61,730 nt of DNA, taken from the IMG/VR virus record IMGVR_UViG_3300044972_000763, positions 1-61,730 of that record; one strand, written 5' to 3'. Positions within the stretch are counted from its first letter, which is position 1; each line of letters starts with the position of its first letter. Of the stretch, positions 1-61,522 are shown piece by piece. The stretch is from a virus. Under the pieces are notes generated by a model. That model was not told the origin of the DNA. It was given only the letters and a program-made list of their open reading frames with translations, and searched no databases. The position numbers and the translations under genes were made by a program.

Positions 1-127
1 CTAAAATTCTGGACGCGCTTGATTGGACCATTCCTGTTGTCAGCCCAATACTTAGTGAGGTCGCTGTCAGACTTGGCGTCCGGCAGGAATTTTGTGATGG
101 CATTTTCAATCCACGCAACAAGCGTGG
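1..127. repeat. 127-bp exact terminal duplication, copy 1 (identical to 61604..61730)
   Basis: Bases 1-127 recur base for base at 61604-61730. A minus-strand reading frame continues through the join with no stop. Confidence 0.95.
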
Positions 128-599
128 CTTCTTCTTCCTTACTGAGCGCAGGCTTGGGCGCCTCGACCTTCTCAGGCTTGCCATTCAACTCATTAGGGTT
201 GGTGGCATCGGCATCCATTTCCCCGGTTTCAATCTTGAACAACTGGCGCATGAACACCTTGTCAGCATAAGACATAGCTGAACCAGCAGACTGCGCCCCT
301 TGGATGGGGTGAAGGATATTCAGGGACGTAAAGTCCTTCTTTTCATCCCCATCAGAATGAAGGAGGTCAACAGCGTATGAGAAATTCAAGGCGCCATTCT
401 TGCCTAGATCGGACAGATGCTTACAGTCTTTCACCCGGAGAACCCAAGTTAGACCATGCCTTGCAGCGACCTTCCCCACTTCGGCGTAGTAGTTATCAAT
501 AGGGACATAGTTATATCCCCCGTGCTGGTTCTTTTCGCCCTTGGCAAGTGACTTGATTTCACTTGTCACGGCAACGATAGCCTTTACGATGTTAGACAT
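1..599 (-). CDS. ERF-like single-strand annealing protein, 5' part of a gene that wraps the contig join (227 aa in total, continues 61603 down to 61519)
   Basis: Manual translation from ATG 599-597 gives MSNIVKAIVAVTSEIKSLAKGEKNQHGGYNYVPIDNYYAEVGKVAARHGLTW...GSAMSYADKVFMRQLF with no stop down to base 1. This resembles the ERF-type N-terminal pattern as I remember it. Absent from the ORF track because the window edge cuts it. Confidence 0.6.
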   Translation of the reverse strand, partial: MSNIVKAIVAVTSEIKSLAKGEKNQHGGYNYVPIDNYYAEVGKVAARHGLTWVLRVKDCKHLSDLGKNGALNFSYAVDLLHSDGDEKKDFTSLNILHPIQGAQSAGSAMSYADKVFMRQLFKIETGEMDADATNPNELNGKPEKVEAPKPALSKEEEATLVAWIENAITKFLPDAKSDSDLTKYWADNRNGPIKRVQNF

Positions 600-912
600 T
601 TTTCCTCTTTTGCGCCCTGCGCCTGTTAAGTGTGATCGTGCCGTAGCCGTCGCCGTAGCCGTCGCCGGAGCCGTAGCCGTAGCCGTAGCCGTCGCCGTAG
701 CCGTAGCCGTAGCCGTCGCCGTAGCCGTAGCCGTCGCCGTAGCCGTAGCCGTCGCCGGAGCCGTCGCCGTAGCCGTAGCCGTCGCCGGAGCCGTAGCCGT
801 AGCCGTAGCCGTCGCCGTAGCCGTAGCCGTCGCCGTAGCCGTAGCCGTCGCCGGAGCCGTCGCCGGAGCCGTAGCCGGAGCCGTAGCCGACCGGCCTAAA
901 GGTGGCTTCCAT
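592..912 (-). CDS. Gly/Tyr/Asp-rich low-complexity protein (106 aa) with a basic C-terminal tail
   Basis: ATG 912-910 overlaps the upstream stop (TAATG). The stop at 594-592 overlaps the ERF-like start. The body is almost only GYGYGD/GSGD units, then TITLNRRRAQKRKNV. The track ORF 592..924 uses an upstream TTG. Confidence 0.6.
   Translation of the reverse strand: MEATFRPVGYGSGYGSGDGSGDGYGYGDGYGYGDGYGYGYGSGDGYGYGDGSGDGYGYGDGYGYGDGYGYGYGDGYGYGYGSGDGYGDGYGTITLNRRRAQKRKNV
640..891. repeat. 42 tandem hexanucleotide units (GCCGTA/GCCGTC/GCCGGA) with a ~120-bp higher-order duplication
   Basis: Read directly. The block 660-709 recurs at 780-829. Confidence 0.9.
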
Positions 913-1232
913 TAAAGCCCCCAATCATCCGGCACAGGGACACAGAAAATCTCCGAACCCTCGGGAATATCAACATCAGCAATAGGCCGAAGATCAGCAT
1001 TTGCCTTCTTGGTATTTTCAATCATCCCGGCAAAGCCGATTGATTCCCATTTGAACACATGCAGGGCGCGGGACAAATGAATGCGCCCATCCTTGCGGGT
1101 TATATCGCCCGCAAAAATCCAGCCACGGTCAACGACAACCACGGCCCGCGTCCCCGATACCTTTTTAACCGGGGCATATTCCACACCGTTGATAATCATG
1201 TTCGTCTTTTCCTTCTGCTTTGAGTTAGACAT
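912..1232 (-). CDS. hypothetical protein (106 aa)
   Basis: Track ORF 912..1277. I prefer ATG 1232 (MSNSKQKEK...), which lies just after the upstream stop at 1235-1237. Confidence 0.6.
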   Translation of the reverse strand: MSNSKQKEKTNMIINGVEYAPVKKVSGTRAVVVVDRGWIFAGDITRKDGRIHLSRALHVFKWESIGFAGMIENTKKANADLRPIADVDIPEGSEIFCVPVPDDWGL

Positions 1233-1234
1233 GG

Positions 1235-2137
1235 TTACTCCTTTCCTTCTTCTTCCTGTGCCTTCAAGGCAGCCCATTGGCTACACCATTCAGACACGGC
1301 ACAAAACTCTGCACACTTCTTGTTCTGGCCCGGCCTCTCCACAACCGTTGCCTTATTCTCCTTGGCGTATTCTTCTGCTTCATCCTTTTGCTCAGGATCA
1401 AACAGCTTCAGCGCCCGCTTCCGTCCATCCTTGATAACCGCCAACTGACCTGGGCTATACCAGCGTTCTTCAGCGGAACATTCAGGTGGATCATTCCAAT
1501 CCATAAGGGCTTCCGCTTCCTTATGGGTTTTTACCCGTTCATTGAAATACTGCTCTGCCGCTTCCGGCGACCAAAGCGGAATCTCAATAACCTTCATCGG
1601 AGCAGGGGGATAATTAGGATCAGTCTTAGCCCGCGCCCGAACCCAATCCCGCATGATGGCGTTGATTGCCAATCCCGTAATCTCATAGTTCTTTGTCTTG
1701 CGGGCTAGGTGAGCATAGCAATTAAGCTGCTTTTCCCACTCCGACTTCCCGTTAATCACATTGTATGTAGAGGTCAGCTTATAATCACTGATATCGCAGT
1801 TAAGGGTTCCATCTTCATCAAGATTCATGGACTGAAGATCAACCCCGCCGCTAATGCGCCAGCCATCATGTTCAATGAACAGCCGTTCCTCTGCGCGATT
1901 ATCTTCATCGGCGCCCTTCTCGACCACCTCATGCAGAGCGGTTCCAATCAATGCCCACAGCTTATCAGCTACGTCCTCGACAATTTCATCTTCATGCTTC
2001 TGAGTTAGAAGCCTAACGCGCGGGCTGCCAATCAACTGAGTGACGGAGATATGGGCATCGCCCCGGCTGTAGGTATTACGATTTGCAAAGTTGACTAGGG
2101 TTTGCGGCAAGCCATACTTGTTGGTTAGTTTTGCCAT
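1235..2137 (-). CDS. Cas4/RecB-family PD-(D/E)XK exonuclease with a C-terminal Cys cluster
   Basis: GGVDL ... DISDYKLT (D..D-x-K) and EKQLNCYAHL (QxxxY), plus Cys residues PECS ... CAEFCAVSEWC. Sits next to the ERF-like gene. Confidence 0.65.
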   Translation of the reverse strand: MAKLTNKYGLPQTLVNFANRNTYSRGDAHISVTQLIGSPRVRLLTQKHEDEIVEDVADKLWALIGTALHEVVEKGADEDNRAEERLFIEHDGWRISGGVDLQSMNLDEDGTLNCDISDYKLTSTYNVINGKSEWEKQLNCYAHLARKTKNYEITGLAINAIMRDWVRARAKTDPNYPPAPMKVIEIPLWSPEAAEQYFNERVKTHKEAEALMDWNDPPECSAEERWYSPGQLAVIKDGRKRALKLFDPEQKDEAEEYAKENKATVVERPGQNKKCAEFCAVSEWCSQWAALKAQEEEGKE

Positions 2138-2198
2138 TTACTGTCTCCTTGTTATGGCGTATATACAGGAACATTTAGTGGATTGCAAGAGGTTTTTT

Positions 2199-2549
2199 AT
2201 GGTAACTTTCATGATCTATGGTGAACCTGCGTCCAAAGCTAATAGTCGCAGGCTCGTTAAGCGGGGCAAGCGTGTTATCTCCATCAAGTCTGCAAAGGCG
2301 CTGAATTACTGTGACGTCTTTATCGAGCAATGTCCGGTGCTGGATACCTTAATGGATGGTGAGTTGGTTGCTCACATTCATATTTGGTATGCTAGTCAGC
2401 GCCCGGACCTGGACCCTAGTTTGATTCTGGATTTAATGCAGGAACGCATTTACCAGAACGACAGGCAGGTTAGAGAAATGCACCTATACCATTGGATTGA
2501 TAAACATACTCCAAGGGCGCAGATCACTATAGAAAGAAGGTCGTCATAA
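2199..2549 (+). CDS. rusA: RusA-like Holliday junction resolvase
   Basis: MVTFMIYGEPASKANSRR...RPDLDPSLILDLMQERIYQNDRQV resembles the RusA pattern. ATG 2199 chosen inside track ORF 2091..2549. Confidence 0.6.
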   Translation: MVTFMIYGEPASKANSRRLVKRGKRVISIKSAKALNYCDVFIEQCPVLDTLMDGELVAHIHIWYASQRPDLDPSLILDLMQERIYQNDRQVREMHLYHWIDKHTPRAQITIERRSS

Positions 2550-2631
2550 GCCAGTGGGCGGCAAGGCTCCCCAATAGGAATCCTGACAGGGCGACCAAAA
2601 GAATGATGGCTGTTGCTTTAGTCCTGCTCAT
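2527..2631 (-). CDS. possible 34-aa membrane peptide
   Basis: MSRTKATAIILLVALSGFLLGSLAAHWLMTTFFL. The ATG lies 4 nt after the upstream stop. Below the track size cut-off, and its 3' end overlaps rusA convergently. Confidence 0.25.
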   Translation of the reverse strand: MSRTKATAIILLVALSGFLLGSLAAHWLMTTFFL

Positions 2632-2635
2632 GCGT

Positions 2636-2785
2636 CTAACCCTTTATGATTGTGTAGATAAACAGACCGAGCGCCACGATGAATGTGTAGATACCCAGCG
2701 TCCGTTCCACTTTATCGCTGGGCCACACCGCCATTAACAGGCTGAATGTGGCAACGAAAGCAAGTATGCATAACCAGAAGATCAT
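2636..2785 (-). CDS. small two-TM membrane protein (49 aa)
   Basis: MIFWLCILAFVATFSLLMAVWPSDKVERTLGIYTFIVALGLFIYTIIKG. ATGA overlap with the upstream stop at 2782-2784. Confidence 0.4.
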   Translation of the reverse strand: MIFWLCILAFVATFSLLMAVWPSDKVERTLGIYTFIVALGLFIYTIIKG

Positions 2786-3027
2786 GGCATATCCTTCATG
2801 ACCTTGGCCCGTAGGTCGTTGATGATTTCCACGGCGCCCTGCAATCCCTGTTTAGGAGCCTTGTGATAAGAAACGATAATGGTCCCCCTATCTGAAATGG
2901 TTTCCCTGGTTGCCCTTGGTTCTTCGCAAGCCTTTTGGACTGCGAGAAGGGCGGCTAGGTATCCATCCCGATAGCCGGTAGCCATGATGCGCTTGGCGTC
3001 TGAGACTGTGTAGATTGGTTCACTCAT
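2782..3027 (-). CDS. hypothetical protein (81 aa)
   Basis: Track ORF 2782..3060. ATG 3027 follows GGAG and overlaps the upstream stop. Confidence 0.55.
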   Translation of the reverse strand: MSEPIYTVSDAKRIMATGYRDGYLAALLAVQKACEEPRATRETISDRGTIIVSYHKAPKQGLQGAVEIINDLRAKVMKDMP

Positions 3028-3196
3028 CTTTCTTCCACTCCCATCGGTCCATTCTGACAAAAATCAGAAGCGAAAACCACACAAGAGCCAGCCTCCAAAA
3101 GCTATCGAAGAGGTCCGGTTTCATTATTGATATAAAGATGTAGAGGCACAGTCCTTGGACGCCGCCCTTAACCATGTCGTGCCAAAACTTACTCAT
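3020..3196 (-). CDS. small membrane protein (58 aa)
   Basis: MSKFWHDMVKGGVQGLCLYIFISIM... ATGA overlap with the stop of 3193..3519. Confidence 0.5.
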   Translation of the reverse strand: MSKFWHDMVKGGVQGLCLYIFISIMKPDLFDSFWRLALVWFSLLIFVRMDRWEWKKDE

Positions 3197-3519
3197 CCCA
3201 TCGCCGCCCTTGCCCGTAGCGCGGCGGCGCTGGCCTTGCGAGGGCATGACGGAATGACCTGGGGCAGCGCGAAATACAGCGTAACCGCCGCGTCTAGACT
3301 GGCGGTGTAGGATGGTAATTCTGGCGCGCGATATTCAGTGTCATCATAATCGTAATCCAACACCATTACAGAGTAATACTTATGCCCATAGAAGCAGTTG
3401 CCGTCGCGGCTGGTAACTACGCCACAAGCCAGCGCAATCTCTGCATCCAACTCCCGATCCGGCCCGGCTGCCTGTTCGCAGCGGTCGGCAAGGGCTAGAA
3501 GGGTGGCGCGGTCAGTCAT
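3193..3519 (-). CDS. hypothetical protein, MTDRATLLALA N-terminal family
   Basis: Track ORF. Shares a 41-bp perfect start-region repeat with 3713..3943. Confidence 0.6.
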   Translation of the reverse strand: MTDRATLLALADRCEQAAGPDRELDAEIALACGVVTSRDGNCFYGHKYYSVMVLDYDYDDTEYRAPELPSYTASLDAAVTLYFALPQVIPSCPRKASAAALRARAAMG

Positions 3520-3716
3520 TGGCTTGCTCCTTCAGCGCGGTTTGCCTCTCTGAAAATTGCCTCAACCTGTTTTGATTGCTTTAATGTTAAAGCAGCCGAT
3601 GCCCTTAAAAAAACCTGCGGACTATCGCGTTCGCATTCTATGTGCACAAGGCCCTGAGCGCGGGTTATGCGAAAGCGGAAGCCGTCAGCGCTTATTTCGT
3701 AGGTCTTTTCCATCAT
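3516..3716 (-). CDS. hypothetical protein (66 aa)
   Basis: Track ORF. AAGGAGGA precedes ATGATG, and it overlaps the neighbouring stop codon. Confidence 0.55.
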   Translation of the reverse strand: MMEKTYEISADGFRFRITRAQGLVHIECERDSPQVFLRASAALTLKQSKQVEAIFREANRAEGASQ

Positions 3717-3943
3717 TCCTCCTTTGCGGCGGCAAGCGCCTCTGTTAAACGATCCGCAGCAAACCGAAAATCAAACTCACCGTCGAATGTTGCGATAAAC
3801 TCCTTCGTGTCAAACAAGCTGGCATATTCATTCCCCCCCTGGAGCGATTGCACCAAAGCATCATAGATCATGCGCGCAAGAACCTCGCGATCAGGTAGCG
3901 CGCAGCGTTCGGCAAGGGCTAGAAGGGTGGCGCGGTCAGTCAT
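3713..3943 (-). CDS. hypothetical protein, MTDRATLLALA N-terminal family (76 aa)
   Basis: ATG 3943 inside track ORF 3713..3982. The start region is identical to that of 3193..3519. Confidence 0.6.
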   Translation of the reverse strand: MTDRATLLALAERCALPDREVLARMIYDALVQSLQGGNEYASLFDTKEFIATFDGEFDFRFAADRLTEALAAAKEE

Positions 3944-3947
3944 TGGC

Positions 3948-4103
3948 TTAATCCTTCGCGGCGGCAAGCACGGCATCGGCAAGTAGGCCAGCGTGAAGGT
4001 GGTTCATCCCTAGTTGCCGATTCCCGCCATGTCGGGACGGCACTTCGACATAGCCTGCGGGCAGCGCGCGAAGGAACGCGGCGCGGTTTCGATTGAATGC
4101 CAT
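3948..4103 (-). CDS. possible small protein (51 aa)
   Basis: MAFNRNRAAFLRALPAGYVEVPSRHGGNRQLGMNHLHAGLLADAVLAAAKD. The ATG directly abuts the upstream TGA (TGAATG). Below the track cut-off. Confidence 0.35.
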   Translation of the reverse strand: MAFNRNRAAFLRALPAGYVEVPSRHGGNRQLGMNHLHAGLLADAVLAAAKD

Positions 4104-5069
4104 TCACTCATTGCCTTTCCCTTTCAGCGCGCGGCCACGAATAGCGTCACGGAACGCCTCATTAAATACAAGTAGGGCTTTTTCCCATGCCTCAAGCGGC
4201 GTCCAAGTTTCTGCGCCGTCTGGCACTTCCACTTTGACGCTAACGCTCGCACACGCCTCGCGCTCGTTATCCACACGCTCTCGGATGGCTTCGATGATCC
4301 GGCTCGCCGTTGCGTCCATAGGAAGGCGCAATTCTTCAGTGATGCGACCAAGGCGGTTAAAAAATTCGTCGCGCTCTTGCTCTGCTTCGCTGGCGTAAGT
4401 GCCGGGCGGCGTGTCGGAAAGCGCGCGGATGTCGGCGGCGATATATTCCGCAATCTCGGCGTTATTCTCCCATGCCTGTTTCCATTCATACGGCATGCCT
4501 CCTGGCCTTTTCCATTTCTCAGGCATTTCGACGCGATATAAACGGACAACCGCATCACAGGCCGCGATGCACTCTGCCAGCGCGCTTTGCCGGGCCTGGG
4601 CAACTAGATTAGCAGCGGATTTTGACGCCACCGGGTCAAGCGCGCGGATCCATGCCGCGCCTTCGGATAGGGCGCGGTAATAGCCCACGTCATGCTCAGA
4701 ACCTTCCCCGGTTTCAGGGTTGTATTTGTGGTTCTTGTGTAGCTCTTCCAGTCGCAGCGCCGCTTCTTCCAGCGCGCTATCCCGTGCGTTTTCCATCAGC
4801 GCATCGGTATCGTGGTTCAACTCGGCAAGCCATTCCTTGCGCGCGGTGGCGATACGCGCTTCCACTTCGGAGGGCGTGAGAACTGGACCAGCATACACAA
4901 AATGGGCGCCGATTGCATCTTTGGTAAAGATGCTGTGCCATCCTCTATTCGCAGCCCAGTCCACTATAAATTGCCGATCACTGTCAGGGTCTTTGAGCCA
5001 GTGAGGCCCATCCCGTTCCGGGTTCAGCGGCACCCCAGGCTTGCCGGGCCATCCGTTATTGTCGGTCAT
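4104..5069 (-). CDS. coiled-coil early protein (321 aa), Ead/Ea22-like in style
   Basis: Track ORF. N-terminus GWPGKPGVPLNPERDGPHWL, followed by a long Ala/Glu/Arg-rich helical region. Confidence 0.6.
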   Translation of the reverse strand: MTDNNGWPGKPGVPLNPERDGPHWLKDPDSDRQFIVDWAANRGWHSIFTKDAIGAHFVYAGPVLTPSEVEARIATARKEWLAELNHDTDALMENARDSALEEAALRLEELHKNHKYNPETGEGSEHDVGYYRALSEGAAWIRALDPVASKSAANLVAQARQSALAECIAACDAVVRLYRVEMPEKWKRPGGMPYEWKQAWENNAEIAEYIAADIRALSDTPPGTYASEAEQERDEFFNRLGRITEELRLPMDATASRIIEAIRERVDNEREACASVSVKVEVPDGAETWTPLEAWEKALLVFNEAFRDAIRGRALKGKGNE

Positions 5070-5377
5070 TGTGTTTCTCCTAGTGCCTTTGTCAGGGTTA
5101 AACGCGCGCCGATAACGTCCTTGTCGTCAATGCACTCTCGCGCCATTTCAATAGCTTCCCGCAGCCTGGCGTTCTCGGCCTGTAGCTTGTCAGCCTTAAT
5201 ATGTTGACGATCCCGCGCTTCTTCTGTGTGAGCGAAGTCGTCTTGAAGGCTGGCATTCTCGGCCCGCAACGCATCACGCTCGGCGGCAAGGGTGCGGAGG
5301 GCGGTGGCGTTCCGGTCCATATCAAGGCGGTTCAATATCATCGCCAACCGTTCCGCTTCTTCCGTGGTGATGCTCAT
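5066..5377 (-). CDS. coiled-coil protein, TTEEAERLA family (103 aa)
   Basis: Track ORF. Paralogous to the C-terminal half of 5729..6238. Confidence 0.6.
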   Translation of the reverse strand: MSITTEEAERLAMILNRLDMDRNATALRTLAAERDALRAENASLQDDFAHTEEARDRQHIKADKLQAENARLREAIEMARECIDDKDVIGARLTLTKALGETQ

Positions 5378-5532
5378 GTCAGCACTCCGCGCAGCGCCGT
5401 TCGTAGCTTTTCGATTTCGTCGGCGGCTTCAAAAGGTGCGCGGTCGTAATTCCGCACTACGGATTTCCACGATCCGAATTCTTCGCGCATCCAGTTTGGC
5501 GTGTTCCGCAGCCGTTCCACAATGTCGCTCAT
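5374..5532 (-). CDS. small protein (52 aa)
   Basis: MSDIVERLRNTPNWMREEFGSWKSVVRNYDRAPFEAADEIEKLRTALRGVLT. ATGA overlaps at both ends. Below the track cut-off. Confidence 0.45.
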   Translation of the reverse strand: MSDIVERLRNTPNWMREEFGSWKSVVRNYDRAPFEAADEIEKLRTALRGVLT

Positions 5533-5732
5533 TCCTTTTCTCCCAATACATCGCGTCCGGCCTCAGTCAGCGTCCATGGTTCATTATTCACCGCCCAGCC
5601 AAACGGCGGTTCGATGAAATGCCAACCGCGCTTGCACATTTTAACCTTAATGTCGAAAGGCACGGTCTCGCATAGGCCCGGAGTGCTAAGCGCGAGGAGC
5701 AAGTCTTTCTGATCCTGTGGCATGTCGCTCAT
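5529..5732 (-). CDS. hypothetical protein (67 aa)
   Basis: Track ORF. Its start region is a 24-bp perfect copy of the start region of 5374..5532. Confidence 0.55.
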   Translation of the reverse strand: MSDMPQDQKDLLLALSTPGLCETVPFDIKVKMCKRGWHFIEPPFGWAVNNEPWTLTEAGRDVLGEKE

Positions 5733-6238
5733 TCCTTTTCTCCCACCGCCACGCGGGCAATATCAATGATACTGTCATACCCGCCTTCAAAGTCTGCAAC
5801 TTCCACATCATATTCTGTGTCCAGTTCATCAGTTTTCTTTTGGCGCGCTATATCGCGCAGCGCCTCCCACAGCCGGGCGTTCTCTGCATTCAGCGCATCA
5901 CGCTCGGCGGCAAGGGAGCGGAGGGCGGTGGCGGTCCCCGCGTATAGGTCGCGGTTCATGGTTTCTCTACCTTGTATCCACCATATCCCCGCCAGCCGTT
6001 CCGCTTCTTCCGTGGTGATGGTCATGTCAGCACCACCAACGCCAGCATCATAGAAATTACCGCAAGCGCATACGGATTTGAAAAGTAGCCTTGCTATCTT
6101 CTCCAGCTTCAAGATAGCCGTGCGCTGCTCCGATGCGGCATCCTCCAGCCATTCCATGCGCCTTTCAAGCGACGGTTTGGGGGCCGCGTTCATCAAGACC
6201 GGACGCCGCATGGCGCGAGAGAGTTCTTCCTCGGTCAT
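5729..6238 (-). CDS. hypothetical protein (169 aa) whose C-terminal half is a TTEEAERLA-family module
   Basis: Track ORF. The internal MTITTEEAERLAG... matches the N-terminus of 5066..5377. Confidence 0.55.
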   Translation of the reverse strand: MTEEELSRAMRRPVLMNAAPKPSLERRMEWLEDAASEQRTAILKLEKIARLLFKSVCACGNFYDAGVGGADMTITTEEAERLAGIWWIQGRETMNRDLYAGTATALRSLAAERDALNAENARLWEALRDIARQKKTDELDTEYDVEVADFEGGYDSIIDIARVAVGEKE

Positions 6239-6444
6239 TTTTTCCGCGCCTCCATTTCTTCCACCAATGCCTCGTAAGCCGGGTTAATGTCTTGATCAGC
6301 CCACGGACTTCCATCTTCATCAAAATTACCAAACACAACATACTTACTGCCATTCCGTTCCATGGAATTGATGCAGTTCTGAATGTGCGCTGTGGTCATT
6401 TGACTGATGGGGATTTTAACCCCGTTCTTGGTTGTCCAAATCAT
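6235..6444 (-). CDS. hypothetical protein (69 aa)
   Basis: Track ORF, coupled to its neighbours. The C-terminus EEMEARKK resembles that of 6441..6830. Confidence 0.55.
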   Translation of the reverse strand: MIWTTKNGVKIPISQMTTAHIQNCINSMERNGSKYVVFGNFDEDGSPWADQDINPAYEALVEEMEARKK

Positions 6445-6830
6445 TTCTTCCGCGCCTCCATCATTTCATCGGCAAAGGCATAAGCTAATCGCGCCGTGGT
6501 TGTTATGGTCAAATTGCTTTGCGAGCCTCTTTTTGCGTACTCCCAAGCCACAGTAAGCGCAGCCATCGCAAATTCATCGCGCAGGGTTTTGGCTTCCGGC
6601 GCTGGTGCATTGGCAGGCGGCGTGTCGCTGACATAGACTTCGCTGATTAGGTCCATGTCATGACTATCATCAAATTCGCACCAACGACCTTCATCCGTCC
6701 AACACGGTGCGCCGTCTTGAAAACCAAGCGCACAAAAACTCCATTTCGCGGCACGATAACCCACATGATTCATCGGCCCAACAATGCGCCCGCCCCGTGT
6801 GCGGTAATACGCGCCTTCACGAATCTGCAT
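6441..6830 (-). CDS. hypothetical protein, REGxYYRxRxGxIxGP family
   Basis: ATG 6830 follows AAAGGAG. The track start at 6836 is a TTG. Confidence 0.55.
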   Translation of the reverse strand: MQIREGAYYRTRGGRIVGPMNHVGYRAAKWSFCALGFQDGAPCWTDEGRWCEFDDSHDMDLISEVYVSDTPPANAPAPEAKTLRDEFAMAALTVAWEYAKRGSQSNLTITTTARLAYAFADEMMEARKK

Positions 6831-7173
6831 TTTCAATCTCCTTTAGGAAAGCATCTGCATATTGAAGAGCTTGTCTTGCTGCCATTGATGGAGTTAGATC
6901 AGGCGCCAAACGAGGTAGGATTTTAGAAGCTAGGACAACCCTATCCACCTTCGGTGTTGCGTTCGGAGTAAGAGCGGGCGGGTTGGCTTCTAACTCCGTG
7001 AGTTCGGCAATTAGATCATACGGAGTGTCAGGACCAACGCTGGTTTTACCACCCTCAGTCCAAGACTCACAGCCAAAAAAGAATGGATAAATTCGCTTCT
7101 GCTCATAGCGAGATAGCGGCCCATGTATCTTGCCATTGCGCGCCCGATAATACCGTCCTTCTTTAAGGATCAT
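6817..7173 (-). CDS. hypothetical protein, paralog of 6441..6830 (118 aa)
   Basis: ATG 7173 lies 6 nt after AAGGAGA. The N-terminus MILKEGRYYRARNGKIHGPL parallels MQIREGAYYRTRGGRIVGPM. Confidence 0.55.
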   Translation of the reverse strand: MILKEGRYYRARNGKIHGPLSRYEQKRIYPFFFGCESWTEGGKTSVGPDTPYDLIAELTELEANPPALTPNATPKVDRVVLASKILPRLAPDLTPSMAARQALQYADAFLKEIENADS

Positions 7174-7197
7174 TTCATGTCTCCTTTGGTTTCCCAT

Positions 7198-7227
7198 CTT
7201 ATATCACTTCCCAATCCCCATTGTCAA
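7198..7227 (-). promoter_or_regulatory. sigma70-like promoter (TTGACA - 18 nt - TATAAG) reading leftward
   Basis: The minus strand reads CTATTGACAATGGGGATTGGGAAGTGATATAAG about 25 nt upstream of the 7173 start. The 12-mer CTATTGACAATG recurs near 18960 on the minus strand. Confidence 0.45.
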
Positions 7228-7246
7228 TAGATAATTTGCACATAAA

Positions 7247-7666
7247 TTAGGGATTGATATGACTCAGGCGCCAGCCTGTTATATTTTGAGTGATGGTTTC
7301 ATTGAAGTTAAGCCCGTCCATCCTGGACGGAACTCTGGACCAGCCCCCTGTATCTGGATCGTAGTAACCTATAGTCACTATCACCTCTTCCTCTGTTTCA
7401 GTCCTGAGTGTCAGGACGGTTCCATTCCTAGGTGCATACCTCATATTGAACCATTCCATATCTGTCTGTTTGTGTGGATTGATTTCTTCCATTACCTCTC
7501 CGGTCTTAGGATCAATCCTTCTTACATTAGAAGCTGGTCCAAACTTCTGCTTCTGCCAGAATTGTTTAGTATTCACCTTTGGTTTATTTGGTTTTTTAAT
7601 TCCATTTTGTTGTTGAGATAGTATTTCTATCTCCCTCTCTCTCTGATTTCTGTATTTCATCTTCAT
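7247..7666 (-). CDS. hypothetical protein (139 aa)
   Basis: Track ORF. First gene left of the 565-bp ORF-poor region. Confidence 0.55.
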   Translation of the reverse strand: MKMKYRNQREREIEILSQQQNGIKKPNKPKVNTKQFWQKQKFGPASNVRRIDPKTGEVMEEINPHKQTDMEWFNMRYAPRNGTVLTLRTETEEEVIVTIGYYDPDTGGWSRVPSRMDGLNFNETITQNITGWRLSHINP

Positions 7667-8231
7667 TCTACATATCCTTTTCTATGGTTTCATTGTTACC
7701 TTGGGAGCAATGTCCCACCCTCCGCCCCCAAAAATTAATTTGAGGGCGCCGGGTAAAAACAAATTCGTAATTCTCTCTGCCTCGCGCGTTTTGCTACGGG
7801 CTCATTCCCATTCTCAGAGAACTGCCCTGCCCACCCTGCTTCCGGTGGATTTCTAGAACATCGCCCTCAGTAATTACGAACTGGGGCCGGGGTCGGAGTC
7901 TGTTTCCCCGCGCGACATCACCGCTTACTAGTCCAGGGTTTCGGCATCCTGGGAGTTGCATCTGTCAGTGGGGAGAGCAACGGTAGCAGCCCCTTGGATT
8001 TCTCCAAAAAGAACCTTGACTACCGGACTAAAATGGGAGATAAAATCGCCTATGGCGTTCTCGCCCACCTTGCCGGTAACAAGGTGACTTTTTGAGGGGG
8101 ACGCTTTTCCAGAGCGTTCCCCTCCCTCATTTTGTAGCATCCCTATTATATCGGCGCAAGAGAAAAAATAGGTTGAAATTATCCCCAAAATATGTTAGCG
8201 CCCCGATAGTTTTGCACACAAGGGGAGACTT

Positions 8232-48591: not shown

Positions 48592-51500
48592 ATGAGCCGC
48601 TATATCCAACTGCCTGACAATTCGTATGTAGAAATCCCCGAAGGCATGAGCGATGATGAAGCTCGCCAGAAGGTGTTTCTTGATCCCCGCTTTCGTCCGA
48701 TTATTGAACAAGCTATCTCGCAACAATCTAGTATCATCCCTGACTTGGGTGGTAGCGTTGTAAGGGGTGTTGGTTCTATCCCTACGGCAGTAGGAAGGCT
48801 TACCGACCTTGTTCCGGGGATGCAGGATAACATTGTATCCCGTGGTCTAACATCTGCCGGTGAATATCTAAGCCAGCGCGGGACTGCGATGATGAGTCCT
48901 GGCGGGCAGATGCAACAGCGTTTGTTCCAAGCCGTGATGGACGAGGCTGAAAACCAGGGCCTTGTGGATCAGGCCAAGGTTGCCTTGCGGGAAGCTATTT
49001 CCAATCCCCGGATGCTTGCCAATATCACGGCAGAAAGCATCCCTTCATTGGTTGCTTCCTTTGGTGGTGGCTTGGCCGTGCGTGGCGCGGCGGCTGTTGG
49101 CTCCCGTCTAGCGGGCAGGCAACTTGGGGCAGAGGGCGCGCGTAGGGCCGCTGTTGCTGGCGCTATCGGGACTGAATCATTGCTTGAGGGTGGTGGTTCT
49201 GCCGACGATGTGTATAAGGAAATCAAGGGTCTTAAAGAGGAAGAACTACAGAAAAGCCCTGAATATCAGGAGTTGCTTCGTGGTGGCTTGAAACCAGAGG
49301 ATGCTAGGGAATCTTTGGCCCGTAGTGCTGCTAGGCAGGCCGGGCTTCAGACTGCGGCTATCTCAGGGACTATCGGGGCTGCATTGCCCGGTGTGGAAAC
49401 AATGCCGTTTGCTAGGGCTTCTACTGCCGGTAGGGGGCGTAGGGCTTTAACGGGCGCTGGTACTGAATTGGGGCAAGAGGGTGGTCAAGAAGGTGGCGCT
49501 GCGCTTTCAGAGAACATTGCTAGGCAACGTGCGGAGATTGAGCGTGAACTGACTGCTGGCGTTGGTTCCCGTGCTGCGCTTGGTGCGGTGGTTGGTGGTA
49601 TTACAGGTGGTGCATTTGGTGGTTTAAGGTCGTCTGCCCCTGAAGTTTACCGGACTGAAGATGCTGAATTGCGTAGCGCCTTGCAGGCTGGGCAGCCTGA
49701 GTTTCAACGGGCGGCGATTGTAGAGCGCGGCCTTAATATCCCTGCTGAAGATTTCCTTTCCCGTCCAGCGGAAGAACAAGAGAAGCTACTGGCCGAGGCC
49801 CAAAAGGCATTGCAGCCCACGCCAACTATTCGCCAAGTCAGCCCTGAAGATTTTGCCGCTGCCGCCCAAGGGTTGCGCTCCGGTGAGAATCAGGAAGCGT
49901 CTATTGGAACCTTAGCGTCCCAATACATTGCCGATCAGATTAAGGATAAGCCATCCTACACTGTTTCTGTTCCATCGCTTCAAGCTTATCTTTCTGGTAT
50001 TGCGGGCAGGCAGATACCTACCGGCGAAGTTAAGGCTGCGCTTGATAGGCAAATTCAGTCACCCGAGAATCAATCTGGTGAGTTTGGGTTTTCCCTTGCC
50101 AAAGGTGAATCCAAAAAGGGCAAGATTAAGAAGTATGTTGCCAACAATCTTTCGGCGCAGAACCAAGAGGTTGTAAGTGAGCGTGTTGCTGCCGTTGAAG
50201 AAGGGCGCGTTGAAACCCCGATGGGCGCCCCGGCTGCTGCCCCTGAAGGCCCTGGCTTTGCTCTACCGCCCGATGTAAAGCAGAACCTTGAAGATTTGCG
50301 TAAGGGCGTAAAGCCACAACAACAATCCTTGGTGCAATTTCTTAGGAAGGCCGGTGGCTTAAACAACACTGGTTATATGGCCGGTGAGGTTTCCAATATC
50401 CTTGGTTCAAACCGTGCGCTTCCTGGCCTTATTAACAACCAAGCCAGGACGCCAATTAAGAACCAGAATGGTAAGGTGGTTGGTTACAAGGGTGGCCTTA
50501 CACTAGACCGGGCGCGGGAGAAGCTAGTTGAAGAAGGTTTCCTTCCCGAAGATGCAGACATTAACGATATGCTTAATGCTATCCGAGATGAATTATCCGG
50601 TGGTGGCGCCAACTTTGGTTTGACTGAGGATTTTGAAGGTCAGGAACGGCAACGTGCGGCGCAGCAACTAGAGCGCGCCCTAGATGAAGCCGGTGTGACT
50701 GCCCGTGATAGTGATGAAGATATTGCCCGCGTCCTTGGGTTCGAGGTTCAATCCCGTCCTGCGACGGAAGAAGATGTTGAAGCCCTAGACCGTGAACGGT
50801 TTGGTAATGTGCCACCTAAGCCGCTAGGACCGGCTGCTGAATACTCCGCCCGTGGTCAGGCAGGGCAAGCCCCTCAAACCGAACAGACTGCCCCTAAAGC
50901 CTTTGACTACATGGCGGTTATCAATGACCGGCTGAATAAGATCAGGGCCAAGGGCAAGCAGGGTGAAGCCATTGCTGCCGCCATTGAGAAGGATTTGAGA
51001 AGCGGTAAGTATCAACCGGAACAGCTTTATGCCGCCTTCAAGGCTGGCGAAGTGATGGCTGGTATTCTGCCTTCCGGCGCTAACCATGAGATTAGGTTTG
51101 TAGAGCGTATCCTGAAGGGTGATATAGAGGCCCAAGGTCGCCGGTTGCCGCCCGAGAATACCGCGTCAGCGGGAATTATTGAGATTTCCCTATCCGATTC
51201 AGCATTGAGTATGGCGCAAGAAACAGCAGCCCATGAAGCCTTCCACGTTCTTCAAGACTACTACGGCCAATATGATTCAGCCTTCAAGAAACTAATGGGT
51301 CAGTCCTTCAAGGACGGCATGACGCTGGATCAAGTTGATTCCACTATCAAGCGAAAACTACAGACAATCCGTATGCCGGGGTCTAAGCAATCTTATTGGG
51401 ATTTCCTTAGTTCTAGTTTGCCGGGTAAGATTGATAGCGCCCGTGAGGCCGAGGCTTATGTCTTTGGTTCATTGCATGATGCCGCCAAGCGCGGGATTCC

Positions 51501-54500
51501 AATGACCGGATTGAAGCCTGCCTTCACGCGGTTTGTGAATATGCTGACCAAGTTCACTCGGCGCATGGGTAATGCCCTGCGTGGTGATGGGTTTAATAGC
51601 CCTGATGATGTGTTTGGTAGGGTTGTAGAGGGTGATGCTGGTAGGTTTGCTGGTGAGGCCGCGCCTGAGTTTAGGGGTGGTGAGGAGTTTAGTAGCCGCC
51701 TTCCTGCCACCATTGAAGTAGATGGAGTATCCCGCCCTACCACCAATAGTGAAGGGCGCCCTATTCACCCAACAGAAGAAGGGGTGCGTAACTTCTGGCG
51801 GTGGTTTGGTGATAGTAAGGTGGTTGATGCGGGTGGGAAGCCGCTGGTGGTTTATCATGGGACCGATAAGAGGTTCACTAAGGTCAATCTTAATAAGGGA
51901 ACGCAGGGACTTTTTTGGTTCACGTCCGATAGGGCCGCGATTGAGGCGGGCGATGTTGGCGCTGCCGGTAGGGGCGTTATCATGGATTTATACGCCAAGA
52001 TTGAAAGTCCCGCAAACTGGAAACAATACGACCAGCTATCACTTGGAGAATTTAGGTCGCGTGGACTTGATGGGGCCATTCTTCCCGAATCTGATGGCAC
52101 TATGACTGGATTTATTATTGACCGGCCCAATCAAATAAAATCAGCCGTCAACAACACGGGCGCCTTTTCCCCCGCTGATGCCCGCATTCAATACAGCGCC
52201 CGCACCTTACCCAAGGTAAGTTCCACATACCAAAGCGCCATTGACAAGGTAACAGGGACATACGGACAGGAGCCGGACAGCCTATTCCGTAGGGCGCTGG
52301 ATGGCCTTACAGGGGCAAGGGCCAAATACACAATGCTGTATGGTGGCGATAAGCCCCAGCGGGTTAAGGCCACTGATAGCCTTGTCATGTCCAGCGTCAA
52401 CCAATTCCATGCAGGCCATTTGGCTGACCAACTCCTGAAATCCAAGGGCAGGCCGGATGCGGCTGTTATTGGCCGGTCTTGGGAGTCTGCCAACAATAAT
52501 GATGCCCGTATTGCCTATATGATGAACGGTGGTGGGTATAGGCTAGACAAAACCCGTGGGGTTTTGGTGCGTGATCCCAAGGTGAAATCCATTAAGGATA
52601 TGTTCGCCAATAAGGTTCCCACTGATGAGGCCGGGCAAAAGCGGTTCCAAACCTACGCTGTGGCGAACCTAGAGCGTGATCTTCGTAAGCGGGGTAAGAA
52701 AGGCTTTCTTAACCTGACTGATACTGAGATTGCTTCTGTTATCCAAGAGTCTGAACGGTCCTTCCCGCAATGGAAGGAAGTGATTAAGGACTTGAATAAC
52801 TGGAACAATAGCCTGTTGCAGTTGTTGGTGGATGCGGGGAACATTGACCAAGCCACCAAAGATAAACTGATGCAGGTGTTCTACACCCCATTGTATCGCA
52901 AGATGGAAGATGATGCTTACCATAATGCTGATATGGTGGTGGGGCCAGCAACGGCGGGGACGCTCAAGAATCCTAGTGACGCATTAAAGCGTCGTGAGGG
53001 TGGGGAAGAACCCATTGGTGATCTATTCGAGAACATTGTTCGGAATGCAGATGCCATTGTGAAGTCTGCCCTGAAGAATGTTGCCATGGAGAACACCGCT
53101 AAGGGGCTTGAAATTGCGGGGCTGGCCGAGAAGGTTCCCGCTAAACTTGATGGCGCCAAGAATATCATGACCCTTCGCCGGGATGGTAAGGACGTTCATT
53201 ACCGGATTGATGATCCGTTGATGATGATTGCCATTAGCACGGCGCCCATGCAGATTCAGAACGGGTTTTACAAGGCAATGGCTTCTATCTCTGGATTTCT
53301 CAGGGATATGATTACCCTTGCGCCCCCCTTTATGTTGGCAAACCTATGGCGCGGCAAGATTGTGTCTTATGTCCAAGAGGGCGTCCCCTTGTGGCGCTCG
53401 ACATGGCTTGGCCTTAAAGATGCTTTGAAGCAAACCTCCTCTATGACCTCCATCGGGGACGTGACGGGCTTTGGTGGCTACACTTGGGGGCAAGGTAGTC
53501 AGGATTTGGTTGGCGAATTGAAGCGCCAAGTGCGCCTTGCTGACGGCACGGCTTCTATGCTGGATCGGGCCAAGGGTATTGTCCAGGGCTTGCGGCATGT
53601 GGGTGAAGCAACTGAATTTGCTGAACGTGTTAAGGTGGTGGACCATCTTATCTCCAAGGGTATGAACCCTGATGATGCCGCTTTCCAAGGATACCTTCTG
53701 GCGCCCTTCTCTCGACGCGGTATGGGGACCGGCTTCTTTGGTTCCATTGCTTCATTCTTGGCGCCGATTGTCCCGTTCTTGAACGCCAAAATCCAGGGTA
53801 CATACCGCCTATTGGAGAATGAAAAGAACCTACCGAAGCATAAGTTTATTATGCAAATGATGGCGCGCGGTTCGGTTGTGACTATGTTTAGTATGGCCCT
53901 TGCTGCTCTGGCATCCGATGATGAGCGGTGGGAAAACGAGCCGGTTGAACGGAAGATGCTGTATGACATTTTCTATGTAGGCGATAAAACCATTCTTCTC
54001 CCAAGAGCATTTGAAGTGGGGACTTGGTTTGGTGCTATTCCCGTGATGCTTTTTGATGCAGCCCGCAAGGAGCATGGTGGTGATCTTGGGAAGGCATTTG
54101 CCTTTGCGATAACCAATACCCTTGGGTTTAGTCCAATCCCGGCCTCGATTGCCCCGCTAATTACAGTTGCAACAAACTATGATTTCTTCATGGGTCGGGA
54201 GTTAGAAAGCGCGGGCATGAGGTCGCGCCCTGCCAGCGAGAGAAGCCAAGAGGACACATCTAGGGTTGCGGAAGGTGTGGCATACGCCATCAATAATAGC
54301 CTTGGTGAGTTGCCTCGCGGCATGAGAACTGAGTTGTCTCCCATTCAAGTCCAGGCGCTTCTACAGGGCTACCTAGGGACCGCTGGCACTATGATACTGA
54401 GTGCTGTAGATGGGTTCCTTGGCTGGTCTGGTGTGACCCCTGGCAAGCCCGCTGGCCCGCTTGGTGATCCTAATAGCCCGCTTGGTATTGCCACCACCCT

Positions 54501-54864
54501 TTCAGGTATGCGGCGGTTTGTGAAAGGCGATGAGGAAAAGGTTAGCCGGTTTGTTGGTGACTTCTATGATCTAAAGCGTGAAGTGACGCAATGGACCACA
54601 GCCATGAATGACGCCCGGCTTGCCGGGGATATGGCTAGGGCTAACGAGATTGCTTCTGAAAGGTCTGACTTGTTTAGCCTAAAGAAGCAGGTTGATAAAG
54701 CATCCCGTGATGTTGGCGAGATTAGCCGTAGGATGAGGGCTATTCAGAACAATCCTAATATGGACCCACAGGAAAAGGCCGATGCCCTGGTCCCGCTAAG
54801 GCAACGGCGCAATGAAATCACGGGTACGGTTATGCAGCAGGCTGTTGACCGGGGAGTGCGCTAA
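48592..54864 (+). CDS. 2090-aa polyvalent virion protein (zincin-like HExxH region + ART-like domain + C-terminal membrane-segment region)
   Basis: AAHEAFHVL at aa 879-887 (HExxH at 881-885, nt 51232-51246). VVYHGT at aa ~1086-1091 (His 1089, nt 51856). FWFTSD, then PNQIKSAVNNTGAF. Hydrophobic segments FFGSIASFLAPIVPFL, GSVVTMFSMALAALA and GTWFGAIPVMLF lie in the last 400 aa. Confidence 0.75.
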   Translation: MSRYIQLPDNSYVEIPEGMSDDEARQKVFLDPRFRPIIEQAISQQSSIIPDLGGSVVRGVGSIPTAVGRLTDLVPGMQDNIVSRGLTSAGEYLSQRGTAMMSPGGQMQQRLFQAVMDEAENQGLVDQAKVALREAISNPRMLANITAESIPSLVASFGGGLAVRGAAAVGSRLAGRQLGAEGARRAAVAGAIGTESLLEGGGSADDVYKEIKGLKEEELQKSPEYQELLRGGLKPEDARESLARSAARQAGLQTAAISGTIGAALPGVETMPFARASTAGRGRRALTGAGTELGQEGGQEGGAALSENIARQRAEIERELTAGVGSRAALGAVVGGITGGAFGGLRSSAPEVYRTEDAELRSALQAGQPEFQRAAIVERGLNIPAEDFLSRPAEEQEKLLAEAQKALQPTPTIRQVSPEDFAAAAQGLRSGENQEASIGTLASQYIADQIKDKPSYTVSVPSLQAYLSGIAGRQIPTGEVKAALDRQIQSPENQSGEFGFSLAKGESKKGKIKKYVANNLSAQNQEVVSERVAAVEEGRVETPMGAPAAAPEGPGFALPPDVKQNLEDLRKGVKPQQQSLVQFLRKAGGLNNTGYMAGEVSNILGSNRALPGLINNQARTPIKNQNGKVVGYKGGLTLDRAREKLVEEGFLPEDADINDMLNAIRDELSGGGANFGLTEDFEGQERQRAAQQLERALDEAGVTARDSDEDIARVLGFEVQSRPATEEDVEALDRERFGNVPPKPLGPAAEYSARGQAGQAPQTEQTAPKAFDYMAVINDRLNKIRAKGKQGEAIAAAIEKDLRSGKYQPEQLYAAFKAGEVMAGILPSGANHEIRFVERILKGDIEAQGRRLPPENTASAGIIEISLSDSALSMAQETAAHEAFHVLQDYYGQYDSAFKKLMGQSFKDGMTLDQVDSTIKRKLQTIRMPGSKQSYWDFLSSSLPGKIDSAREAEAYVFGSLHDAAKRGIPMTGLKPAFTRFVNMLTKFTRRMGNALRGDGFNSPDDVFGRVVEGDAGRFAGEAAPEFRGGEEFSSRLPATIEVDGVSRPTTNSEGRPIHPTEEGVRNFWRWFGDSKVVDAGGKPLVVYHGTDKRFTKVNLNKGTQGLFWFTSDRAAIEAGDVGAAGRGVIMDLYAKIESPANWKQYDQLSLGEFRSRGLDGAILPESDGTMTGFIIDRPNQIKSAVNNTGAFSPADARIQYSARTLPKVSSTYQSAIDKVTGTYGQEPDSLFRRALDGLTGARAKYTMLYGGDKPQRVKATDSLVMSSVNQFHAGHLADQLLKSKGRPDAAVIGRSWESANNNDARIAYMMNGGGYRLDKTRGVLVRDPKVKSIKDMFANKVPTDEAGQKRFQTYAVANLERDLRKRGKKGFLNLTDTEIASVIQESERSFPQWKEVIKDLNNWNNSLLQLLVDAGNIDQATKDKLMQVFYTPLYRKMEDDAYHNADMVVGPATAGTLKNPSDALKRREGGEEPIGDLFENIVRNADAIVKSALKNVAMENTAKGLEIAGLAEKVPAKLDGAKNIMTLRRDGKDVHYRIDDPLMMIAISTAPMQIQNGFYKAMASISGFLRDMITLAPPFMLANLWRGKIVSYVQEGVPLWRSTWLGLKDALKQTSSMTSIGDVTGFGGYTWGQGSQDLVGELKRQVRLADGTASMLDRAKGIVQGLRHVGEATEFAERVKVVDHLISKGMNPDDAAFQGYLLAPFSRRGMGTGFFGSIASFLAPIVPFLNAKIQGTYRLLENEKNLPKHKFIMQMMARGSVVTMFSMALAALASDDERWENEPVERKMLYDIFYVGDKTILLPRAFEVGTWFGAIPVMLFDAARKEHGGDLGKAFAFAITNTLGFSPIPASIAPLITVATNYDFFMGRELESAGMRSRPASERSQEDTSRVAEGVAYAINNSLGELPRGMRTELSPIQVQALLQGYLGTAGTMILSAVDGFLGWSGVTPGKPAGPLGDPNSPLGIATTLSGMRRFVKGDEEKVSRFVGDFYDLKREVTQWTTAMNDARLAGDMARANEIASERSDLFSLKKQVDKASRDVGEISRRMRAIQNNPNMDPQEKADALVPLRQRRNEITGTVMQQAVDRGVR

Positions 54865-61032: not shown

Positions 61033-61244
61033 GTCTTTTCATCCCCAAACATGTGCAATTCCAGATGATGCTCGGCGCATAGAGGAACCGCCCAATCATC
61101 CCCTGACTTCAGCCCCATTGCGGAAGGTTCCGCGAACATGAGGTGGTGAGCCTGCGCCCATCTATCGCAGATCAGGCAACCATGTTCCCTGACCTTTGAG
61201 AGATAGGCTTTACTGCGGAAGCGTTTAGTCTTTGGCCCCATCAA
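60948..61244 (-). CDS. DUF968/Ref-like HNH-type nuclease candidate
   Basis: HGCLICDRWAQAHHL...GLKSGDDWAVPLCAEHHLELH matches the remembered C..C..HH...PLC..HH pattern. Confidence 0.5.
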   Translation of the reverse strand: MMGPKTKRFRSKAYLSKVREHGCLICDRWAQAHHLMFAEPSAMGLKSGDDWAVPLCAEHHLELHMFGDEKTWWDTKGINPLDWCESMRKHRRDGSSGS

Positions 61245-61522
61245 AAAGGCACGGAGTCATCATCGTCACGGGACGGCGAACCACTGGATTCAGGCTTCTC
61301 GTAGGGCTTAGATGCCGATAAAGAGATAAATGTTCCGCCTGTTCTGGTGGGCTTATTCCAGCCAGAAAGCTGCATTTTCAGCGGTTCATTCTTCTTCGCC
61401 ATAGCGATAAGATGATTCAGGGTTTCCCGAGAGATTTCCAGATTTCCGGTATAATCCGGGGCCTTGGGTGATCGCTTCTTGTCCTGATGAAACAAGACGC
61501 CACCAGGGGGGTAATTACTCAT
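61241..61522 (-). CDS. small SSB-like protein with a canonical acidic SSB tail
   Basis: The C-terminus SRDDDDSVPF resembles the bacterial SSB tip DDDIPF. Sits directly upstream of, and coupled to, the ERF-like gene. Confidence 0.5.
   Translation of the reverse strand: MSNYPPGGVLFHQDKKRSPKAPDYTGNLEISRETLNHLIAMAKKNEPLKMQLSGWNKPTRTGGTFISLSASKPYEKPESSGSPSRDDDDSVPF

Follow-up and report, generated by a model that had tools for sequence, protein, structure and literature searches.

The window analysed here, the whole 61,730-nucleotide stretch of IMG/VR virus record IMGVR_UViG_3300044972_000763, was found to be a complete circular phage genome of 61,603 unique bp, with an exact 127-bp terminal direct repeat (positions 1–127 are identical to 61604–61730). 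On its minus strand, at 592–912, lies an open reading frame (ORF) of 106 aa, with the ATG at 912–910 and the TAA at 594–592, here designated the GY-array gene, which encodes a (Gly-X)n protein predicted to be disordered. The gene directly upstream on the same strand, here designated gpU (912–1232, 106 aa), is coupled to it, and its product is predicted to have a Sm/LSm-like fold. The GY feature is almost certainly a real coding gene and part of a widespread, previously undescribed two-gene phage module with the Sm-like-fold gpU. A preliminary description of the locus, made from the sequence of the window, had placed the GY gene between a Cas4-like exonuclease gene and an annealase gene; an annealase gene of the ERF family does follow it, but gpU lies directly upstream and the exonuclease gene is one gene further up.

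The GY protein contains 42 Gly, 23 Tyr, 12 Asp and 6 Ser residues, which together make up 78.3% of its length, and is laid out as MEATFRPVG-(GX)41-TITLNRRRAQKRKNV, the last segment being a basic tail, in agreement with the composition of about 80% and the tail reported at first. The N-terminal motif MEATFRPVG (886–912, minus strand), which recurs across lineages, begins with the ATG that has one base in common with the gpU stop (914–912) in the sequence TAATG. The (Gly-X)41 array, in which X is Tyr, Asp or Ser, occupies 640–885 (minus strand) and is the part that varies in length, the proteins of relatives having 42–114 aa. The tail together with the stop codon (592–639, minus strand) holds the Shine-Dalgarno sequence and the start of the ERF gene, and the last 8 nt of the GY ORF, ATGTCTAA, overlap the ERF start at 599, so that the translational coupling claimed on both sides is indeed present. 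Tandem Repeats Finder (TRF) delimited the array at 640–889 with 89–91% matches at periods of 12, 18 and 30 nt and a score of up to 388, while the span 640–891 consists of 42 hexamers, each composed of GGC followed by TAC, GAC or TCC, which confirmed the near-perfect 6-bp array. A higher-order duplication of about 120 bp had also been proposed; lag 120 (array self-identity 0.90) does not stand out from lags 30, 48 and 96, all of which reach at least that identity, and the clearest higher-order copy is an exact 25-aa (75-nt) repeat at an offset of 96 nt. The codons TAC, GAC and TCC are used exclusively in the window array, whereas the genome favours TAT (68%), GAT (68%) and TCT, and also GGT; on account of this departure from genome preference the array is regarded as a recently homogenised minisatellite.

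Homologs of gpU number more than 1800 in a collection of 5.8 billion proteins, many of them 75–85% identical; they form 210 representative clusters at 50% identity, and gpU is encoded in 420 IMG/VR contigs. For a small phage ORF, identity of 75–85% across phage lineages is unusually high, and tandem-duplicated versions of gpU were also observed (P0241, P0242). The best 80 viral loci with gpU were examined. In 79 of these 80 loci a Gly-X-rich ORF begins at the gpU stop or overlaps with it (ATGA or TGATG/TAATG), and P0276 is a natural GY-gpU fusion ORF. The only locus devoid of a GY array (L132, 2501–3150) has an unrelated 110-aa ORF after gpU. Sixty-seven of the 79 GY ORFs are complete and represent 61 distinct sequences of 37–164 aa, with a median of 94 aa. 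Their X positions are occupied by Tyr (52%), Asp (20%), Asn (15%), Ser (5%) and Phe (2%), and Ala is nearly absent (21 of about 1900 positions). The N-terminal motif of the family is F-[RMK]-P-[VI]-G, as in MEATFRPVG, MDSAFRPVG, MQPNFMPVG and MASTFRPIG, and a C-terminal motif, [TS]-[VI]-x-[NST]-[ST]-x-x-R-R, is found again in lineages with a gene other than ERF downstream. As the C-terminal motif recurs whatever gene follows, the basic tail is more than a consequence of its overlap with the ribosome-binding site of ERF. Two further lineages, retrieved by exact-protein look-up, have the same gpU-GY arrangement with a downstream gene other than ERF, and they include in-frame length variants (90 versus 54 aa; 105, 109 and 111 aa). 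The pair is also present in contigs of metagenome-assembled genomes and in a Novosphingobium isolate genome, on a 580-kb contig, and the hosts of GY-carrying phages span Actinobacteria, Proteobacteria and Chlorobi.

A Pfam scan of about 190 flanking ORFs disclosed replication, recombination and nucleotide-metabolism genes and no fixed neighbour, the families including VRR_NUC, YqaJ, PDDEXK_1, DUF2800, ERF, RecT, AAA_24, SSB, helicases, methylases and DNA polymerase A. ERF was found in only 2 of the 91 downstream ORFs scanned. Given these flanking genes, the module belongs to the DNA-metabolism region and not specifically to an exonuclease-ERF unit. Across hundreds of phages the constant partner of the GY gene is gpU, and not the exonuclease or ERF gene. 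The original view of the GY gene as a component of the recombination module is therefore not supported, given neighbours that differ by lineage; the gene does recur widely in other phages, where it had been proposed to look for it, but with gpU as the neighbour that stays constant. In the window, the lineage-specific upstream neighbour is the PD-(D/E)XK (Cas4-like) exonuclease gene (1235–2137, minus strand; PF12705, E 7e-5; phrog_2139, E 6e-49), the product of which is at most 38% identical to proteins of cultured phages. ERF, the downstream neighbour and likewise specific to the lineage, encodes a single-strand annealing protein (PF04404, E 4.5e-19; phrog_155, E 1e-30). Since the genome is circular with a 127-bp terminal overlap, the ERF gene runs on the minus strand from 599 to 1 (the N-terminal 599 nt) and then from 61603 to 61519 (the C-terminal 85 nt), and the joined ORF of 684 nt, rebuilt over the circular junction, encodes the full protein of 227 aa. 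A comparison of positions 1–8000 of the window with 50,697 GenBank phages found no DNA similarity.

Close relatives of the window locus were taken from IMG/VR, JGI metagenomes and assembly look-ups, and gave ten distinct alleles, including that of the window, in the same slot. The proteins have 106, 106, 42, 104, 114, 82, 76, 80, 90 and 78 aa, start with M-[ED]-x-x-F-[RK]-PVG and end with TITLNRR[RN]A[QR]K. All ten nucleotide lengths are 3 mod 6 and differ only by multiples of 6 nt, as the array gains or loses hexamers or multiples thereof and the alleles, though variable in length, stay in frame. Of the 21 length differences recorded inside single lineages of the whole family, 19 are multiples of 6 nt. 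Expansion and contraction in frame had been anticipated in the preliminary description, with a search for length differences by multiples of 3 or 6 nt as the proposed check; it had also named frame-breaking changes and a conserved antisense frame as grounds for abandoning the gene, and neither was encountered in the ten close alleles. Indeed, the GY frame alone is stop-free in 10 of the 10 close alleles. In the window, two more frames are open through the array, (Ala-Val)n on the antisense strand and (Ala-Thr)n on the same strand, the latter leading into ERF, and the real gene might on this basis be sought in the antisense ORF or in an N-terminally extended ERF. Each of these two frames is, however, interrupted by a stop in 4 of the 10 close alleles, namely in the clade L003/L004/L046/L049; moreover, the antisense frame is open in only 38 of the 61 family alleles, and the gene downstream is ERF only in the window lineage. 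Readthrough of the gpU stop into ERF via the (Ala-Thr)n frame was ruled out by the stop in that frame in the same clade. The near-perfect DNA repetition would also suit a function of the repeat itself, as iterons, a pac site, a Chi-like cluster or a structured RNA, but the unit differs by lineage, and not every allele is repetitive. All 100 dinucleotide shuffles have more structure than the array mRNA (z = +3.8), and the array had no match in Rfam, both of which make an RNA element unlikely. A functional DNA or RNA repeat and a gene in another frame are thus largely refuted and, taken jointly, keep a minimal probability.

Alleles with a different DNA sequence in the array were of particular value. 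The L039 allele (1352–1696; found also in L040) has flanks nearly identical to those of the window and a non-repetitive, G/Y-rich centre of 90 residues in which all four Gly codons and both Tyr codons are used; this different centre implies cassette replacement by recombination or very rapid array turnover. L112 is a further non-repetitive allele with the Gly-[YDNS] pattern, whereas in L123 the peptide pattern is built from GGG-TAC units and in Chlorobiaceae phage CV-1-33 from GGC-TAT/GAT/TCT. Across lineages it is the peptide pattern that is kept, not the DNA unit. These observations bear on the possibility that the array is tolerated junk, that is, a selfish or neutral minisatellite in a short ORF that acts as a mere translational bridge from gpU to the next gene, with a functionless peptide. 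Such an origin would account for array codons (GGC/TAC/GAC/TCC) that disregard genome preference, for homogenisation at the DNA level, for the free length variation from 37 to 164 aa and for a frame that hexamer units hold without selection. It does not fit an array that is kept in phages of Actinobacteria, Proteobacteria and Chlorobi and at 79 of the 80 loci, conserved motifs at both termini, or the same Gly-[YDNS] pattern being encoded by independent DNA units (GGG-TAC, GGC-TAT) and by the non-repetitive L039 and L112; in addition just 21 of about 1900 X positions are filled by Ala, of which the codon GCC is a single step away from those used. A functionless array is consequently judged improbable. 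A mechanism of the diversity-generating retroelement type was ruled out, as the unit varies between T and G at codon position 1 and between A and C at codon position 2 and is not adenine-specific; reverse transcriptase was not searched for.

Gly-Tyr arrays were likewise found behind genes of the DUF6948 family (PF22253), which encode beta-rich proteins of about 95 aa and, as gpU does, precede an overlapping Gly-Tyr array ORF. An array followed the DUF6948 gene in all 3 of the metagenomic contexts that were checked and in 7 of the 8 from GenBank. P0011, P0059 and P0047, which were found by composition, each lie directly behind a bona fide DUF6948 gene and overlap it, at loci that adjoin PDDEXK/AAA_24, RecT/YqaJ or YqaJ genes. 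Unlike the window GY protein, the array partners of DUF6948 are mostly devoid of the FRPVG motif and basic tail, or have extra domains. In cultured and sequenced phages, arrays placed after DUF6948 occur in Iodobacter phage PhiPLPE (L152, 1164–1409) as an unannotated 81-aa ORF near HNH, RecE and Bet genes, in Pectobacterium phages Sabo and Taid as annotated hypothetical proteins, in Ralstonia phage NK-7 (L170, 1490–1903) under the label 'fibroin heavy chain-like protein', in the unannotated record of Vibrio phage IKEMa6-1 and, in a degenerate G-rich form, in the spring-water podovirus ct8d5349. The array of Chlorobiaceae phage CV-1-33 (L171, 1486–1731) is annotated in the wrong frame, as (Met-Ala)n, and isolate ctRVW222 has a DUF6948 gene with no array behind it. 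In Eggerthella phage PMBT5 a direct homolog of gpU, gp37, precedes an array of 108 aa (L151, 3312–3638) labelled 'adsorption protein', a label that finds no support in the phage paper or in the virion mass spectrometry (PMC9394477). If the labels in PMBT5 and NK-7 were taken at face value, and with the resemblance of (Gly-X)n to the fibroin crystalline repeat, the array protein would be a silk- or fibre-like virion structural or adsorption protein. The GenBank labels are driven by composition, and the array genes are always surrounded by genes for replication and recombination and never occur in structural modules; the array protein is not among the six proteins seen in the PMBT5 virion mass spectrometry, which was a low-coverage survey (PMC9394477). 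A place in the virion is therefore considered extremely unlikely.

Arrays are not confined to separate ORFs. (Gly-[YDSN])n arrays were seen C-terminal to DUF7666 (P0022, P0056, P0095, P0107; in the DUF7666 example L070 there is no DUF6948 gene in front), C-terminal to an unnamed domain with a 'GAC' motif (P0001, P0011, P0024, P0030, P0038, P0054, P0106) and N-terminal to an unnamed 'FAHGETL' domain (P0012, P0059, P0084, P0104). The array thus behaves as a portable module that is fused to other phage domains. Hundreds of proteins that resemble the GY protein in composition came up in a phmmer-style search with it, which was useful only for the DUF6948 synteny and for one true ortholog, P0008.

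The nature of the constant partner was deduced from structure prediction. The AlphaFold2 (AF2) model of gpU, obtained with a 60-sequence alignment, is all-beta with a mean predicted local distance difference test (pLDDT) score of 90.7, and was assigned to the Sm fold, which is a strongly bent five-stranded beta-sheet. The top 50 PDB matches listed by Foldseek are all Sm/LSm proteins or constructs on them; the best (E 9e-4) is the archaeal Sm protein 1i8f, with a template modelling (TM) score of 0.72 target-normalised and 0.48 query-normalised, and most have E values of 2e-3 to 6e-3, other matches being Lsm3, SmD3/B and the metagenomic Sm-like protein 3by7. On the strength of this model gpU is confidently predicted to have a Sm/LSm-like fold. 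Sm1/Sm2 sequence motifs are not detectable in gpU, and LSM and Hfq are not among the 17 families reported for 60 gpU family members at E up to 1. The best named matches to gpU among the predicted viral structures of BFVD are DUF6948 proteins, PMBT5 gp37 and proteins labelled 'RNA binding' or 'Sm-like', with DUF6948 models at ranks 4–7 (E 1.8e-4 to 1.2e-3). Weak sequence matches to DUF6948 were obtained for 8 of 60 gpU family members (best E 0.02), and no other family was matched more than twice. These data suggest that gpU and DUF6948 may be remotely related. The reading of the GY protein as precursor of a ribosomally synthesised and post-translationally modified peptide was ruled out, as gpU is all-beta and not a winged helix like the recognition element of such systems, and no modifying enzyme is conserved nearby.

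The GY protein itself matches nothing in Pfam, PHROGs, NCBIfam, PADLOC or the PDB beyond composition, and weak matches to Pfam TrAA12, PHROG 18306, NCBIfam serine-rich and PDB entries were dismissed as compositional and below threshold. The earlier remark that no characterised phage recombination accessory protein of this composition is known agrees with the outcome in all five collections, and the literature searched on DUF6948, DUF7666 and Gly-Tyr low-complexity proteins of phages contained nothing of relevance. Kil-type genes adjoin recombination genes in lambdoid phages, and a small gene of the early region, tightly coupled to its partner and fast-changing in sequence, present as a pair in a Novosphingobium genome contig, could be a host-takeover or toxic peptide, either a Kil-like division inhibitor or an aggregation-prone sequestering peptide, with gpU as its chaperone or antidote. 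No toxin, anti-defence or defence model in PADLOC, NCBIfam or Pfam was matched, however, and membrane and targeting features are absent, so that this role appears quite improbable.

In its charge the window GY protein falls into blocks, with a net charge of -12 and regularly spaced Asp in the array and of +5 in the tail; for whole proteins of the family the median net charge is -4, and the tails are positive and Arg-rich (152 Arg versus 44 Lys). The acidic array might mimic DNA or serve as a nuclease decoy (Gam-, Ocr- or Abc2-like) that shields recombination intermediates from RecBCD, AddAB or restriction enzymes, the more so as the GY gene often lies near exonuclease and annealase genes and anti-RecBCD genes occupy the equivalent modules of lambda and P22. 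Yet Asp is often exchanged for Asn, Ser, Lys or His, about 11 of the 61 alleles are neutral or positive, neither a fixed charge spacing nor a fold is predicted, and the conserved partner is Sm-like rather than a nuclease or annealase; a decoy function is given a similarly low probability as a toxic one.

With 23 [G/S]Y[G/S] motifs in 106 residues, the GY protein has the composition that marks the prion-like or FUS-type low-complexity class, which is a functional class and not a homologous family, and the FUS-like character first noticed is borne out as a likeness of composition and predicted disorder, not as homology. The domains of FUS and hnRNPA1-A2 are similarly rich in G, S, Y, N and D, with dense [G/S]Y[G/S] motifs, predicted disorder and Tyr-rich and Arg-rich segments. 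The GY protein differs from them by the lack of homology, the strict period-2 Gly-X pattern and the absence of Gln and of an RNA-binding domain; it is a stand-alone phage protein of 40–165 aa that arises from a hexamer minisatellite. In the Bombyx-type fibroin repeat (GAGAGS/GAGAGY), too, Gly strictly alternates with a residue that is either small or aromatic, but in the GY protein X is Tyr, Asp or Asn instead of Ala or Ser, and the protein is acidic, tiny, intracellular and encoded in the early region, with no beta-sheet predicted. The linker and acidic tip of Escherichia coli SSB are a disordered Gly-rich element as well, and P22 Arf and lambda Gam and Kil are small accessory ORFs beside annealase or exonuclease genes; unlike all of these, the GY gene travels with gpU and not with any particular recombinase. 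An RTX beta-roll (GGxGxDxUx) was ruled out by the period of 2 residues (6 nt) and the lack of a hydrophobic position, and a collagen-like or polyglycine-II structure (GXY; T4 gp38-type) by Gly at every second instead of every third residue and TRF periods of 12, 18 and 30 nt, each made up of 6-nt units.

Other features of the window were recorded apart from the module. A 93-aa ORF directly after ERF (61241–61522, minus strand; ATGA overlap) has an acidic SSB-like tip and a weak PHROG SSB match (E 9e-4), and may encode a miniature SSB-like protein. Two small ORFs on the minus strand (3193–3519 and 3713–3982), both without a match in Pfam and PHROG scans, have the N-terminus MTDRATLLALA[DE]RC in common and look like paralogs. 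A gene for a RusA-like Holliday-junction resolvase (2091–2549, plus strand) is divergent, its 5' end and the beginning of the exonuclease gene having about 47 nt in common. The biggest ORF of the genome encodes 2090 aa (48592–54864, plus strand).

Tyr and Arg govern the phase separation of FUS-family proteins, and Lsm4, SmD1 and Hfq combine a Sm fold with a low-complexity tail that promotes higher-order ribonucleoprotein assembly. The gpU-GY pair resembles SmD1/D3 with their Gly-Arg repeats, yeast Lsm4 with its Q/N tail and Hfq with its C-terminal region in that a Sm fold is combined with low complexity, but its low-complexity part is a separate, coupled polypeptide and is Gly-Tyr instead of Gly-Arg or Q/N. 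For gpU the likeness to Sm/LSm proteins is one of predicted monomer fold, the ring and RNA binding being conjectural. By analogy with these systems, gpU may assemble into a Sm-like ring, which would bind RNA or single-stranded DNA in the replication/recombination region of the phage, and the GY protein would dock to gpU through its terminal motifs or through the array itself. Tyr stickers with Gly spacers, the Arg-rich tail with its Tyr-Arg contacts, and the polarity of acidic block and basic tail would then supply multivalent weak contacts that could hold protein and nucleic acid together in a higher-order assembly, be it a condensate, a gel or a fibril, with a valency set by array length. 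Background on Hfq condensates and on Tyr-driven phase separation is available (PMC11839049 and PMC10519987). This mechanism, a ring with a docked multivalent GY assembly, is put forward tentatively and is more doubtful than the gene pair itself, while the explanation as a whole, the demonstrated part and the mechanism together, falls a little short of probable. More speculative, and rather unlikely, is a two-component 'granule kit' in phages of many host phyla, in which a Sm-like ring would bind phage RNA or single-stranded DNA and a prion-like Gly-Tyr protein, encoded separately and with a valency tuned by minisatellite slippage, would nucleate a condensate or fibrillar scaffold around replication and recombination intermediates, as a viral analogue, in the bacterial world, of LSm/P-body or Sm-tail/SMN assembly.

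Several points count against the explanation of the pair as a coding module with a Sm-like gpU and an assembling GY protein. The fold of gpU comes from one AF2 model, its TM-scores are 0.6–0.74 when target-normalised and only 0.45–0.50 when query-normalised, and the window gpU has no LSM or Hfq match in Pfam at E up to 10. It also remains below the DUF6948 (PF22253) gathering threshold of 27 bits, with no match by hmmscan, and hhalign with a deep gpU alignment gave a sub-threshold probability of 63% (E 6.8e-5) against DUF6948, a shallow alignment being uninformative (1%). The AF2 model of the GY protein, with a mean pLDDT of 39.4 and devoid of DSSP elements, is a single-sequence prediction. 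Neither the FRPVG motif nor the basic tail is universal, as arrays paired with DUF6948 in other phages lack them; the array is the only element found throughout, which points to it as the functional part. In-frame variation of pure arrays is no proof of selection, because hexamer slippage keeps the frame automatically, and the L039/L040 allele together with the differing DNA units is stronger evidence for selection at the protein level than the in-frame lengths are. Last, array lengths were mostly taken from short-read assemblies, the contig ends inside the array in 12 of 80 loci and some arrays contain N gaps, so that individual lengths may be mis-assembled.

The existence of GY arrays is confirmed by cultured-phage genomes. 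Short-read viral assemblies repeatedly break at the arrays: among L072, L076, L080, L082, L093, L094, L096, L101, L105, L121, L128 and L142, and L061 and L162, many contigs end inside the array, 50–200 nt after gpU, and some scaffolds contain N gaps at that place.

Low-complexity repeat proteins are already known as a kind, and what is new here is the pairing of a repeat-encoded disordered protein with a Sm-like partner. Whatever the function, annotation is corrected for arrays that are now unannotated, read in a wrong frame or given names such as 'adsorption protein' and 'fibroin-like', and the arrays are flagged as a reason why contigs of viral metagenomes repeatedly break. A natural length series from 37 to 164 aa is on hand, as are the cultured carriers Sabo, Taid, PhiPLPE, NK-7 and PMBT5. 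Should the proposed role be true, it would give a function to a very common 'hypothetical' phage gene pair, with more than 1800 gpU homologs and relatives in DUF6948, and bacteriophages would possess a compact, genetically tractable assembly driven by low complexity, the valency of which is written in a slippage-prone repeat.

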